From Patescibacteria group bacterium (GTDB lineage Bacteria > Patescibacteriota > Minisyncoccia > Phycocordibacterales > Phycocordibacteraceae), in NCBI GenBank assembly GCA_028866135.1, contig JAGWIS010000003.1, positions 1-43,654 of the forward strand: a DNA stretch of 43,654 nt, written 5' to 3'. Within the stretch, counting starts at the first letter, position 1. Each line of letters opens with the position of its first letter. A model generated the notes under the pieces. The model did not search any database. It was not told the origin of the DNA and saw nothing but the letters and a program-made list of their open reading frames with translations. Below are positions 15,558-40,241 of the stretch, in pieces. A program made the position numbers and the translations under genes.

Positions 15558-16123
15558 TTCTTCTTCTCGGCGGGAACGTAATCCACCATGAAAGCGTGCT
15601 CCCAAAGATCGAGCGCCAGGATGATCGGCAGCCCGGCGAGCTGGCCGAGCTCATGATCGTTCACGAATACCGTGTGGAGCGTATGTGCGCGAGGGTCGGC
15701 ATACACGACGACCCAGCCGATACCGCGGCTTCCGGCGACTTCCTTTATATGAGCGATGAAGTTCTCGCCGCTTCCGTACTTTTCCTCCGCAGCCTTCGCA
15801 AGCGCTGAGGAGCGATCGCCTCCTTTCTCTCCTTCGAACTGCTCGAAATAATATTCATGCATGCGCATCCCGTCGAACTCGAACGCGAAGCGACGACGCA
15901 GCTCCGCGATGAGGTAGGCATTTCCTGCGGCATCCCTAGACGGCTTGCCGTCGGGCGAACCGCCTTCTGCGGTTTTAGCCGCTTCCTTGAGCGCCTGTAT
16001 CTTTCCCATGATGAGATTCACCTGCTTCACATATCCCTCATACAGGGCGAGGTGCACTTTTACCTGCTTCTCTGAGATCCCTTCCAAAGAAGGAAGATTG
16101 AACTGTTTTGCGATGTATTGCAT
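15488..16123 (-). CDS. Fe/Mn superoxide dismutase family protein
   Basis: Metal ligands VHLALY, MHEYYF, LDLWEHAF; start taken at MQYIAK. Confidence 0.9.
   Translation of the reverse strand: MQYIAKQFNLPSLEGISEKQVKVHLALYEGYVKQVNLIMGKIQALKEAAKTAEGGSPDGKPSRDAAGNAYLIAELRRRFAFEFDGMRMHEYYFEQFEGEKGGDRSSALAKAAEEKYGSGENFIAHIKEVAGSRGIGWVVVYADPRAHTLHTVFVNDHELGQLAGLPIILALDLWEHAFMVDYVPAEKKNYVDAFLANLNWSVVEKRFEAAK
15929..15980 (-). repeat. 52-bp structured in-frame insert, copy 1 (in sod)
   Basis: Minus strand GGCTAAAACCGCAGAAGGCGGTTCGCCCGACGGCAAGCCGTCTAGGGATGCC; 39/52 identical to 39631-39682. Confidence 0.85.
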
Positions 16124-36692: not shown

Positions 36693-39077
36693 ATGGCTAA
36701 AAAGACATCCGTAAAAAAACGCATCGTGCTCTTGGATTCTCATGCGATCATCCATCGCGCGTATCACGCGCTCCCGGAGTTCACCGGCCCCTCCGGCGCG
36801 CCCACGGGTGCTTTGTACGGGCTCGTTGCGATGCTCCTTAAGATAATTACCGACCTGAAGCCCGACTATCTCGCGGCGTGCTTCGACCTGCCGAAGCCGA
36901 CCATCCGCCACGAAGCCTATGAGCACTACAAAGCGACGCGCGTGAAAACTGACGACGCACTTGCGCTCCAATTGAATGAATCGCGTAAGGTATTCGAAGC
37001 ATTCTCGATTCCGCTCTACGAGCGAGAGGGATTTGAAGCGGACGATCTCCTCGGCACCATCGCGCACGAACTGCGGGAAGAAGGCGTCGACGTCATCATC
37101 GCCTCGGGCGACATGGACGCGCTTCAGCTCGTCGACGACAAACGCGTCCGGGTTTACACGCTCAAGAAAGGCATCAATGACACGATTTTGTATGACGAGA
37201 AGGCAGTCATCGAGCGCTATGGCTTCAAGCCGGAACTCATCCCCGACTGGAAAGGGCTTCGCGGCGACCCCTCTGACAACATCAAGGGCGTTCCCGGCAT
37301 CGGCGAAAAGACGGCAACGGAGCTCGTGAAAGGTTTCGGCACCATCGAGAAGATGTATGCGGCCCTGAAGAAGGGTGATGCCGCATTTCTAAAAAAAGGA
37401 GTGAAGGCCCGCATGATCGGGCTCCTTCGTGAGCACGAAGAAGATGCGCGTTTCTCGAAATCCCTTGCGACGATACGGACCGATGCGCCCATCGCCTTCA
37501 CGCTGCCTGCGGGTGCGTGGCGTGAGACGGTGGATTTACAAAAAATTCTCGCGATGTGCGAGGGATTCGGTTTCCGTTCGCTTCGAGAACGGGCGAAGAA
37601 GATTCTCGCAAACGGCGACGAGGCAGAAACAGAAAACCCTTTGTTTGTTGCACCCGCTCCTGAAGAAGTAGACCCAACGAAGCTTGCAGAAGCGCAGGCG
37701 ATGCTCTGGCTCATTTCTTCGGAGTTCACAAACCCCTCGCTCGACGACATACTCGCATTCACCAAAGAACGAGTGTTCGCCGCTGCATACGCGAAGCTTG
37801 AGGGTCAGCTCGCCGCTTCGGGCCGGGTGCAAGAGGTGTACGAGCATATCGAAAAGCCGCTCATACCGGTCGTGCGCAGGATGGAGGAGCGCGGCGTGCG
37901 CATTGATCCGGACGTGCTCGATTCTCTCGCGGAGAAATACCGCTCCGAACTCAAGCAGATCGAGAAGCGCATCTATAAGGCGGCCGGGCGCGAATTCAAT
38001 GTGAGCTCCCCGAAACAGCTCGGCGAAGTTCTTTTCGATGAGCTGAAGATTGTTCCGGAGAAGCAGAAGAAGACGGCGGGCGGTCAGCGTTCAACCCGCG
38101 AGAGCGAGCTCGAAAAGATTCGCGACGAGCATCCGATCGTGGCCGACATCCTCGACTACCGCGAATTGAAAAAACTCCTTTCGACCTACATCGAAAACCT
38201 GCCGCCACTACTTGATGACGACCACCGTCTTCATGCGCAGTTCCTCCAGACCGGGACGACGACGGGCCGCATGGCGAGCCAGAATCCGAATTTGCAGAAC
38301 ATCCCGCTCCACTCTGAGCGCGGGCGCGCGATACGCCACGCTTTCGTCGCATCAAAAGGTTTCAAGCTCGTGGCACTCGATTATTCTCAGATAGAACTGC
38401 GGCTCGCGGCGATCCTTTCGGGAGACGAAAAACTCTGCAAGATATTCAAGAGCGGACGGGACGTGCACCGGGAGGTCGCGGCGCAGGTATTTCATGTTGC
38501 GCCCGAGGCGGTCGATCTTGAGATGCGCCGGAGGGCGAAGGTCATCAATTTCGGCATCCTCTACGGCATGGGGGTGAACGCGCTTCGTGCCCAGCTCGAC
38601 TCGACGACCGCGGAAGCGCATCAGTACCTCGAGGAGTATTTCGCGACGTTCAAAACCCTTTCCGAATACCTCGAGCGCACGAAAGGATTTGCGAGAAAGC
38701 ACGGCTACACCGAGACGTTGTTTGGCCGCCGCCGGCAGTTTCCGGAAATGAAATCCTCATTGCCTTACGTGCGGGCTCAAGCGGAGCGCATGGCCATTAA
38801 TGCGCCTCTCCAGGGAACGCAGGCCGACATCATCAAGCTCGCAATGGTGCGTGTCGACGAGATGCTCAAAAAGGAAGGCGCGCTTGACGACGCCTATCTG
38901 CTGCTTCAGGTGCACGACGAGTTGGTGTACGAGATCCGTGCTGAACGGGTCGCGACACTCGCTGCCAAAATAAAAGAACTCATGGAGTCGGTGTTGCCGC
39001 AAAAGGAGACCCGCGGCGTGCCGGTCGAAACGGTGATGAAGTCCGGAGATGATTGGGGCGCGATGCGCGCCATTTAA
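36693..39077 (+). CDS. polA: DNA polymerase I lacking most of the 3'-5' exonuclease domain
   Basis: 5'-3' exonuclease (EADD, GDPSDNIKGVPGIGEKTA); polymerase motifs TGRMASQNPNLQNIP, DYSQIELR, AKVINFGILYG, QVHDE; 794 aa. Confidence 0.96.
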   Translation: MAKKTSVKKRIVLLDSHAIIHRAYHALPEFTGPSGAPTGALYGLVAMLLKIITDLKPDYLAACFDLPKPTIRHEAYEHYKATRVKTDDALALQLNESRKVFEAFSIPLYEREGFEADDLLGTIAHELREEGVDVIIASGDMDALQLVDDKRVRVYTLKKGINDTILYDEKAVIERYGFKPELIPDWKGLRGDPSDNIKGVPGIGEKTATELVKGFGTIEKMYAALKKGDAAFLKKGVKARMIGLLREHEEDARFSKSLATIRTDAPIAFTLPAGAWRETVDLQKILAMCEGFGFRSLRERAKKILANGDEAETENPLFVAPAPEEVDPTKLAEAQAMLWLISSEFTNPSLDDILAFTKERVFAAAYAKLEGQLAASGRVQEVYEHIEKPLIPVVRRMEERGVRIDPDVLDSLAEKYRSELKQIEKRIYKAAGREFNVSSPKQLGEVLFDELKIVPEKQKKTAGGQRSTRESELEKIRDEHPIVADILDYRELKKLLSTYIENLPPLLDDDHRLHAQFLQTGTTTGRMASQNPNLQNIPLHSERGRAIRHAFVASKGFKLVALDYSQIELRLAAILSGDEKLCKIFKSGRDVHREVAAQVFHVAPEAVDLEMRRRAKVINFGILYGMGVNALRAQLDSTTAEAHQYLEEYFATFKTLSEYLERTKGFARKHGYTETLFGRRRQFPEMKSSLPYVRAQAERMAINAPLQGTQADIIKLAMVRVDEMLKKEGALDDAYLLLQVHDELVYEIRAERVATLAAKIKELMESVLPQKETRGVPVETVMKSGDDWGAMRAI

Positions 39078-39079
39078 AC

Positions 39080-39805
39080 ATGCTGTACCTTTTCTACGGC
39101 TCGGACGTGGAGAAAGCTCGGACGAAAGCGTTCGAGTGGGTCGCGAAGGCGCGGACGAAAGAGCCGAGTCTCGCATACGCGCGGCTTGCGCGCGAGGAAC
39201 TGACTCCCGCCGCGCTCGAAGACGCCGCGCTCTCGAGCGGACTTTTCGTGAAGCGTCTTTTGATACTCATCGACGATCCTTTTCCCTCCGCGCGCGCCGC
39301 CGATGAAGAGGGGGAAGAGGAAGCAAGCGCAGGCATACTTGAAGACCATATTGATGCGCTCGCTGCATCTGACAATGCCATCGTCATTCTCGCCCCCAAG
39401 CTTTCTGCAGCGAAAGCAAAAAAGATCGCCGCAAAAGCAAAAGTCGAATACGCGTACGACAAGCCCGCCGCAAGAGAAGAGCGGGGTTTTAACGGCAATC
39501 TCGTGAATGCGCTCGCCGCGCGTCAGCGGGAAAAGCTCTGGCTCGAGATCAATCGCGCGCTTCGCGCGGGCGATGCTCCCGAAATGCTCCACGGCCTCCT
39601 CCACTGGAAAGCGCGCGATCTGATGGAAAAGGCTAAAGCCTCCGGAGGCGGCTCGCCCGACGTTTCCACGTCTAGGGGCGCCCGCGCGTGGGCTCCGAAA
39701 GAAGCACGCGCCCTCTCGCTCGCGCTCATTGCTCTTCTCCAGGAATCCCGGCGCGGCGGGCTCGACCTTGATATCGCGCTTGAGGAATTCGCACTTTCTA
39801 TATAA
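39080..39805 (+). CDS. holA: DNA polymerase III delta subunit-like protein
   Basis: MLYLFYGSD N-terminus, ..GLF.KRLLILI pattern, C-terminal helical collar; divergent. Confidence 0.65.
   Translation: MLYLFYGSDVEKARTKAFEWVAKARTKEPSLAYARLAREELTPAALEDAALSSGLFVKRLLILIDDPFPSARAADEEGEEEASAGILEDHIDALAASDNAIVILAPKLSAAKAKKIAAKAKVEYAYDKPAAREERGFNGNLVNALAARQREKLWLEINRALRAGDAPEMLHGLLHWKARDLMEKAKASGGGSPDVSTSRGARAWAPKEARALSLALIALLQESRRGGLDLDIALEEFALSI
39631..39682 (+). repeat. 52-bp structured in-frame insert, copy 2 (in holA-like gene)
   Basis: GGCTAAAGCCTCCGGAGGCGGCTCGCCCGACGTTTCCACGTCTAGGGGCGCC, homologous to the sod insert. Confidence 0.85.
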
Positions 39806-40168: not shown

Positions 40169-40241
40169 TGCGCCCGGATGGGATCGAACCATCGACCAAC
40201 GGATTAAAAGTCCGCTGCTCTACCAACTGAGCTACGGGCGC
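40169..40241 (-). tRNA. tRNA-Lys (anticodon UUU); CCA not encoded
   Basis: Acceptor GCGCCCG/CGGGCGC, D arm GCTC/GAGC, anticodon loop CT-TTT-AA, T arm GATGG-TTCGATC-CCATC. Confidence 0.97.

Follow-up and report, generated by a model that had tools for sequence, protein, structure and literature searches.

Why do two unrelated genes on one Patescibacteria contig carry nearly the same short stretch of coding DNA? The window analysed here is the whole 43,654-nt stretch of contig JAGWIS010000003.1 (C44), one of 46 contigs in a 694,721-bp genome of a Patescibacteria group bacterium (GCA_028866135.1, here G000; 57% G+C, 97% complete). An initial annotation made from the sequence alone had pointed to a 52-bp segment shared by a superoxide dismutase (SOD) gene and a gene named holA, and the pair is real. 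The reverse complement of 15929-15980 is identical to 39631-39682 at 39 of 52 positions, whereas about 2e-4 pairs per window with at least 39 of 52 matches are expected by chance at the window's base composition. Both segments lie in sense and in the same codon phase of their reading frames (Table 1), and the two compensatory changes proposed between them are present, one in hairpin 1 (A:T to G:C) and one in hairpin 2 (G:C to T:A). As to the host genes, the SOD assignment held (Sod_Fe_C, E 1.3e-19), but the name HolA corresponds only to a weak match: the ORF scores 39 bits against TIGR01128 holA (E 6e-10; cut-off 80) and matches no Pfam family. We refer to it as HolA-like.

The segment had been described as an insert of 17 residues whose two hairpins are enclosed by a GGC/GCC stem. 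Comparison with orthologues instead gives an insertion of 45 nt, or 15 residues (AKTAEGGSPDGKPSR and AKASGGGSPDVSTSR), with the outer alanines of the longer segment belonging to the hosts, and the GGC/GCC stem draws on host sequence 3' of the element, which other copies do not conserve. The pairing with covariation support is a CCC:GGG helix across the TA bulge, in which one pair covaries (CG 41, GC 4, UA 3). The bulge itself, part of the original description, is kept across the whole element family.

Table 1 Coordinates of element copies, host genes and other features named in the text. Positions preceded by a contig name (C) refer to other contigs of the same genome, all others to the window.
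Feature	Position	Strand	Remarks
Element copy in SOD gene	15934..15980	-	Covariance-model match 56 bits, E 6e-13; orthologues without it; net insertion 45 nt (CTAA to TAG plus one GG)
SOD copy, 5' part	GG 15980-15979; CTAA 15978-15975; palindrome 1 15974-15958	-	
SOD copy, 3' part	CGCCC 15957-15953; palindrome 2 15952-15939; TAG 15938-15936; GG 15935-15934	-	
Element copy in HolA-like gene	39631..39677	+	Covariance-model match 46 bits, E 4e-10; 29/29 orthologues without it; net insertion 45 nt
HolA-like copy, 5' part	GG 39631-32; CTAA 39633-36; palindrome 1 39637-53	+	One T.C mismatch in palindrome 1
HolA-like copy, 3' part	CGCCC 39654-58; palindrome 2 39659-72; TAG 39673-75; GG 39676-77	+	
Fe/Mn superoxide dismutase, 215 aa	15488..16135	-	Host gene of SOD copy
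HolA-like protein, 250 aa	39053..39805	+	Host gene; directly 3' of polA-like ORF 36693..39077
tRNA gene	40169-40241	-	Rfam, 76 bits; just downstream of HolA-like gene region
tmRNA gene	C30:4923-5386	-	
tmRNA region	C30:4923-5444		Corresponding locus L188 1424-1945
Element copy inside tmRNA gene	C30:5050-5108		
GIY-YIG gene	C30:5509-5718		Precedes the copy at the tmRNA 5' end
Element copy in rRNA-operon spacer	C12:1686-1742		
Contig with 16S rRNA and next tRNA	C12:1-2725		About 2.2 kb between 16S rRNA end (448) and tRNA (2653-2725)
UvrD/PcrA-like helicase gene	C7:10460-13654		Holds intein (Intein_splicing, Hint), one sense copy and one antisense copy of 86 nt with a 33-nt hairpin 2 loop
Half-copy	C35:8630		
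Dyad-symmetric variant	C3:4238-4299		
Dyad-symmetric variant	C4:2287-2342		
RAYT-like Y1 gene (PF01797)	C22:12063-12725		
RAYT-like Y1 gene (PF01797)	C17:2220-2873		
RAYT-like Y1 gene (PF01797)	C1:3526-4542		
RAYT-like Y1 gene (PF01797)	C5:2090-2719		
RAYT-like Y1 gene (PF01797)	C22:17399-18166		
Canonical IS200-type TnpA	C39:11790-12260		At contig end

The two window copies belong to a family. A profile made from them found about 20 additional copies, and a covariance model built from six 56-nt copies gave at least 29 matches in the genome at E up to 5e-6 (150 of 340 candidates scored). A structure-aware scan returned 30 matches against 3 in the reversed genome. It replaced a loose regular expression that had given 28 matches against 24 in the reversed genome, a comparison carrying no significance test; the core was substituted in all but one of these control matches, and they had no hairpins. 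In total, the genome holds 31 full copies of 44-86 nt, spread over 21 contigs, and two partial ones, one a half-copy and one cut by a contig end.

The family layout is NN-CTAA, palindrome 1, TCG-N'N'-CGA, palindrome 2, YTAG-NN, and every copy in the genome reads GG-CTAA, a palindrome, T-CGCCC-G, a second palindrome and then Y-TAG-GG. The inverted repeats at the termini are no longer than 4-5 nt (CTAA(A)/(T)TTAG, or CTA/TAG), the hairpins are subterminal at both ends, and the centre TCG-CC-CGA is dyad-symmetric. Insertions measure 42-84 nt with a mode of 54 nt. The two palindromes are near-perfect and unrelated to one another, and stem sequences differ almost completely between copies of one genome, the junction motifs being what copies have in common. 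A closing stem CTAAA/TTTAG was considered and rejected, as position 6 may be A, G, C or T while its opposite position does not change to match. A fully dyad-symmetric variant (GCCTAA..TCGGCCGA..TTAGGC) occurs at two places (Table 1) and is scored by the covariance model on both strands; it could be the ancestral form of the element.

That constraint acts on nucleic-acid pairing and not on the peptide, as was originally proposed, is borne out by the wider family. In a covariance-model alignment of 50 copies, taken from this genome and related ones, 98.8% of cells pair while stems differ between copies, and double-sided changes occur in 14 of the 18 pairs. Cells changed on both sides number 248 against 64.0 ± 6.4 in shuffles, and none of 500 shuffles reached 248, although shuffle statistics overstate the significance because the alignment was fitted to the structure and the sequences are mutually related. 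The pattern is nonetheless obvious on inspection of the parsed copies. Controls in which partners were slid by 1-3 columns paired in 29-49% of cells. Antisense and non-coding copies have the same structure.

Orthologous genes display the sites empty. We compared four genes, each with the best 30 loci among the 55-60 matching genus genomes, and for each gene 29 of 29 loci were without the element. The insert is 45 nt in SOD (empty site GC-GG-AT) and in the HolA-like gene (AA-GG-GC), and 54 nt in CTP synthase (AA-GG-GT) and in BipA, where the copy is antisense (G-CC-GAA). In all four genes the insertion consists of CTAA to TAG plus 2 nt, and the flank dinucleotide is present once in the empty sites. 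The duplicated flank dinucleotide could be a target site duplication or, equally, a shared crossover or cleavage dinucleotide. In SOD the insert falls in a stretch of variable length among orthologues. Other palindromic inserts were seen in the same genes: one encoding LPAGRQG in frame occupies the element site of the HolA-like gene (L117 and L119, in G024 and G066) and that of CTP synthase (L343 and L358, in G059 and G066), and the SOD of G053 (L075) has an unrelated palindromic 11-residue insert three residues beyond the element site. Several mini-palindrome families seem to target the same protein loops.

The flanks are coupled to the centre of the element. Across 66 parsed copies, the triple of 5' flank, centre base and 3' flank is GG/C/GG in 53, GC/G/GC in 6 (the fully dyad-symmetric variant, counted on both strands) and GA/T/GA in 4, with 3 exceptions. 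The flank dinucleotide is thus identical on both sides and complementary to the central dinucleotide (GG/CC, GA/TC, GC/GC) in 63 of the 66. Among the matches listed for further genomes of the order, GC/G/GC recurs in 7 copies and GA/T/GA in 3, at other loci, against about 10 copies that deviate at a single position. Because one of the two flanks is host-derived, we infer that target choice follows the element's own centre. No clear target motif beyond GG was found in the flanks of the copies.

Most copies in this genome lie in genes. Reading frames contain 24 of the 31 full copies, and the insertion length is divisible by 3 in all 24 (42 to 84 nt) against 2 of the 7 non-coding copies. A wider sample of 122 copies was parsed from 116 stretches of other genomes, among the matches listed. 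There, 24 of 28 copies in ORFs of at least 200 aa have lengths divisible by 3, and the 79 copies outside ORFs of at least 100 aa split 27/31/21 by remainder. The frame is thus a filter that translation imposes. Judged from these intact frames, genic copies are probably translated and not removed. Sixteen sense copies enter as G-GCT-AAA, three sense copies use another phase, and all five antisense copies (in MurD-like, BipA, UvrD, KsgA-like and tRNA_bind genes) share one phase. The excess of sense copies, 19 of 24, is attributable to which frames are free of stops.

The host genes are core genes and serve replication, repair and chromosome maintenance (UvrD with two copies, UvrA, UvrC, GyrA, SMC, HolA-like), transcription and translation (RpoC, LeuRS, GatB, BipA, MiaA, Dus, a KsgA-like methylase, a tRNA-binding protein, YqeY) and other functions (DnaK, RNase R, CTP synthase, a MurD-like ligase, an M50 peptidase, a coupling-protein-like ATPase, SOD). 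RNA genes are also affected. One copy lies inside the tmRNA gene and a second abuts the tmRNA 5' end, a leader position also filled in G017 and G046, while another lies downstream of the 16S rRNA 3' end in the rRNA-operon spacer.

These observations lead us to regard both inserts as, probably, copies of a non-autonomous mobile DNA element that is tolerated in frame, as Rickettsia palindromic elements are. The element would integrate at a GG dinucleotide, which would then flank both of its ends. A genic copy would persist only if its length were a multiple of 3 and its frame free of stops, and it would be translated as a hydrophilic loop of 14-28 residues; frame-filtered, translated copies of this kind would account for the similar peptides of SOD and the HolA-like protein. 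The initial annotation had named a transposase substrate as one possibility, a reading consistent with the empty sites in orthologues, GG on either side of the element, the patchy copy numbers and independent insertions 6 nt apart within one gene. The outcome that it named as a refutation, a lack of further copies together with orthologues that hold the segments, is contradicted in both parts: the genome has further copies, and the orthologues examined are empty.

Copy numbers are patchy. Within the genus, 13 of 60 other genomes carry the element, with up to 8 copies each (7 in the closed relative G017), and 47 have none, while the present genome has about 30. At the level of the order, a pattern search was positive in 40 of 301 genomes, with 25 matches in a single genome, and the reversed pattern gave 12 among the matches listed. 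One strict pattern matches at least 116 stretches in records titled Patescibacteria, Parcubacteria, Paceibacterota and many named candidate lineages, with single records carrying other labels, and it has no matches in viral contigs. Full-text searches of the literature, in which subscription journals lie outside coverage, returned no description of such an element. The family is real and widespread, and apparently undescribed.

Individual loci show signs of movement. A conserved gene on C25 has the element at one point in three genomes and 6 nt further in a fourth, and is empty in G000. The half-copy on C35 is the first half of an element that is complete at the same place in G009, and G198 has two copies head to tail with a single GG in common. 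A contig from a public run that is 45 nt shorter at the SOD site derives from a divergent relative and is not a population variant.

Two observations sit uneasily with a mobile element. Stems differ almost totally between copies within the genome, unlike those of a recently amplified transposon family. Further, stems have stayed perfect in orthologous copies at the YqeY, KsgA-like, GyrA and tmRNA-leader sites by way of compensated changes and wobble intermediates, with hairpin 2 more variable than hairpin 1 among orthologous copies, and loop inversion distinguishes some of these. Compensated pairing is not expected of a dead selfish insert, and therefore needs continued structural selection or self-correction of palindromes. 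Pairing may be kept by selection for foldability, because movement needs or the host uses folding; it may instead reflect self-correction of palindromes during replication, or turnover at hot spots.

The perfect stems at these four sites, the conservation of junction motifs across many lineages and the position directly 5' of tmRNA in three genomes could also point to a structural DNA element that serves the host in a REP-like role. The double hairpin would then be bound or processed by a protein conserved in Patescibacteria, with a part in replication, topology or recombination, for instance; it would be selected locus by locus, and its spread would be secondary. We consider this unlikely, given that 47 of 60 genus genomes do without the element, filled and empty sites are patternless among close relatives, half-copies decay, and many copies sit inside essential proteins, no obvious place for a DNA signal.

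A non-autonomous mobile element would depend on an enzyme supplied from elsewhere, and no cognate enzyme or autonomous relative was found. A half-site scan for longer versions gave 65 matches against 112 in the control, none convincing, and the flanks of candidate genes (Y1, GIY-YIG and others) are unlike the element, except for one GIY-YIG gene adjoining a copy. Nothing linked the five RAYT-like Y1 genes (Table 1) to the element: each is bracketed on both sides by its own, different perfect palindrome, and together with these palindromes they resemble miniature hairpin-ended transposons. The canonical IS200-type TnpA likewise has flanks unrelated to the element. Y1 genes occur in 12 of 13 element-bearing and 20 of 47 element-free genomes, a loose association among mutually related genomes. 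GIY-YIG matches average 3.5 in element-bearing and 1.7 in element-free genomes, a weak difference confounded by relatedness. The genome has seven GIY-YIG nuclease genes of 78-114 aa (on C21, C29, C7, C10 and three on C30; genus range 0-7), several of which adjoin tRNA or other RNA genes and only one of which lies beside an element copy. In the genome containing L247, a GIY-YIG gene lies beside smpB and is flanked by two copies. Neither RVT_1 nor TnpB-type domains were found in the genome, which has one rve integrase and two Resolvase-domain ORFs in open frames of 435-500 aa.

The latter two ORFs bring up a different route for the same element, conservative site-specific recombination at a 2-bp overlap as in IS607, by which a circle with TTAG-GG-CTAA would recombine with any GG. 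Junction and centre are each an inverted repeat about a middle dinucleotide, as in the crossover sites of serine recombinases, and flank dinucleotides are identical in all but three parsed copies. A GG overlap and a circular form are also described for IS607 in Boocock and Rice (2013, PMC4058570). This route nevertheless seems improbable to us: from DNA mechanics, a double-stranded circle of 43-60 bp would be too stiff, the covariation between flank and centre would be left unexplained, and neither Resolvase-domain ORF adjoins a copy, the nearest being that on C3 at 2.7 kb.

The initial annotation had offered an RNA signal embedded in mRNAs as the other possibility, and a structured signal in transcripts, acting in processing, stability or ribosome pausing, would agree with the strong stem covariation, the sense orientation of most genic copies and the copies in tmRNA, the tmRNA leader and the rRNA-operon spacer. 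The pair below the TA bulge at the base of hairpin 2 is G:U in 33 and G:C in 14 of 50 copies (47/50), and is strand-specific. This G:T is, however, the sole strand-specific pairing feature, and five antisense copies in identified genes fold as well as the sense copies. Stem pairs comprise 986 Watson-Crick, 8 G:T and 8 T:G, so that G:T is both rare (1.6%) and symmetric, and loops are mostly 3 nt (52 of 63 in hairpin 1, 43 of 63 in hairpin 2; GAA 27 times, TTC 11 times). The antisense copies, short loops, rare symmetric G:T and inverted loops together argue for near-perfect DNA palindromes rather than a functional RNA. At the gathering threshold, Rfam matched only tRNA over the window, and 20 copies searched at E up to 1 yielded two chance-level matches (E about 0.7) and no family, ribozymes included. 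A further Rfam scan located only tmRNA, 16S rRNA and a tRNA in the neighbourhood of copies. Folded alone, the two window copies are not unusual (z -1.9 and -0.3), and stop-free frames account for the sense bias. We therefore think an RNA signal very unlikely. Least credible of all is a peptide module common to unrelated proteins and selected at the protein level: all sense copies in phase 2 start with AK and contain SP(D/G)...(S/F)R, but the central residues change along with the stems, the peptides of antisense copies are unrelated, copies are non-coding in 7 cases here and in 79 of 122 in the wider sample (among the matches listed), and the letters that are conserved correspond to the DNA motif.

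Returning to a mobile element tolerated in frame, its general kind is already known. Rickettsia palindromic elements (RPEs) are described as non-autonomous palindromic repeats lying in frame in unrelated housekeeping genes and translated as extra peptide segments (PMC10969869). The likeness extends to in-frame insertion in a bacterium with a small genome. RPE descriptions also set the present element apart, as RPEs are given there as about 150 bp long, restricted to Rickettsia and encoding a conserved peptide per family (PMC10969869), whereas the element measures 42-84 nt, has two hairpins of free sequence and a 2-nt flank coupled to its centre, and is distributed across Patescibacteria.

REP sequences and REPINs, as characterised in PMC3337134 and PMC3116915, are short dispersed hairpin-forming repeats thought to be mobilised in trans by the Y1 HUH enzyme RAYT, a REPIN being two units in inverted orientation. 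Our element is likewise short, dispersed and hairpin-forming, in a genome with five RAYT-like Y1 genes. The differences are several: REPs are extragenic, whereas most copies here are in reading frames (the wider sample, among the matches listed, having most of its copies outside ORFs); REP palindromes are conserved within a genome, whereas the element's stem sequence changes from copy to copy; in a REPIN the two REPs pair mutually, whereas the element's two hairpins do not; and RAYT genes are flanked by their own REPs, whereas the RAYT-like genes here have other palindromes at their flanks. The tetranucleotide also differs, being a 5' GTAG in REPs and CTAA in the element.

Small size, lack of coding content, many dispersed copies and a duplicated flank dinucleotide are features in common with MITEs, but the half-site scan found no convincing parent insertion sequence with the same ends. 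Mitochondrial double-hairpin elements and the GC clusters of yeast mitochondria are also very short mobile elements built of hairpins and found in spacers and coding regions; they belong to eukaryotic organelle genomes and are unrelated to the element in sequence, and we know of no report that couples their flanks to a central dinucleotide. TIGR arrays were set aside, being tandem arrays whose variable parts are not self-complementary. The unusual features of the present element are its minimal size, the free sequence of its hairpins, the target dinucleotide coupled to its centre and its heavy colonisation of essential genes in this genome.

A mechanistic parallel may also lie with IS200/IS605 elements. 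Accounts of these (PMC5934647, PMC3201880, PMC6006769, PMC5027513) describe subterminal hairpins at both ends without classical long inverted repeats, target and cleavage sites that are read via short internal guides and can be reprogrammed, and precise excision through a single-stranded circular intermediate. The flank-centre covariation, the precise empty sites and the strand-specific G:T of the element fit such a scheme. The element differs in that its hairpin sequence is not conserved, both ends would have to share one central 'guide', and no transposase with element-like ends was found. By analogy, the element would move as folded single-stranded DNA. In a circle, its junction TAG-GG-CTA would pair with the centre CGCCC to give a dumbbell, the centre would specify the target dinucleotide much as IS200/IS605 guide sequences do, and an enzyme supplied in trans would cut and join.

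We tentatively raise the possibility, a doubtful one at present, of a self-guided single-strand mini-transposon: a DNA circle of 45-60 nt that is excised, folds into a dumbbell, picks its target by base pairing with its centre and is moved by an enzyme conserved in Patescibacteria. It may by repeated in-frame insertion have remodelled surface loops of RpoC, GyrA, DnaK, LeuRS and UvrA/C/D, together with tmRNA, across the radiation. If so, it would be among the smallest mobile DNAs known.

Unexplained short insertions in Patescibacteria proteins could trace to one DNA element, and tracing them matters wherever these proteins are annotated, aligned, used in phylogeny or subjected to structure prediction. 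In uncultured organisms, element copies also make good markers of recent change in the genome. The coupling between flank and centre dinucleotides is a testable rule for target choice, and if it reflects guiding by base pairs, the element would be a minimal natural system for programmable single-strand integration, perhaps one to borrow. Selfish DNA of the Rickettsia type in essential genes would have an independent and much smaller counterpart in another lineage with reduced genomes.
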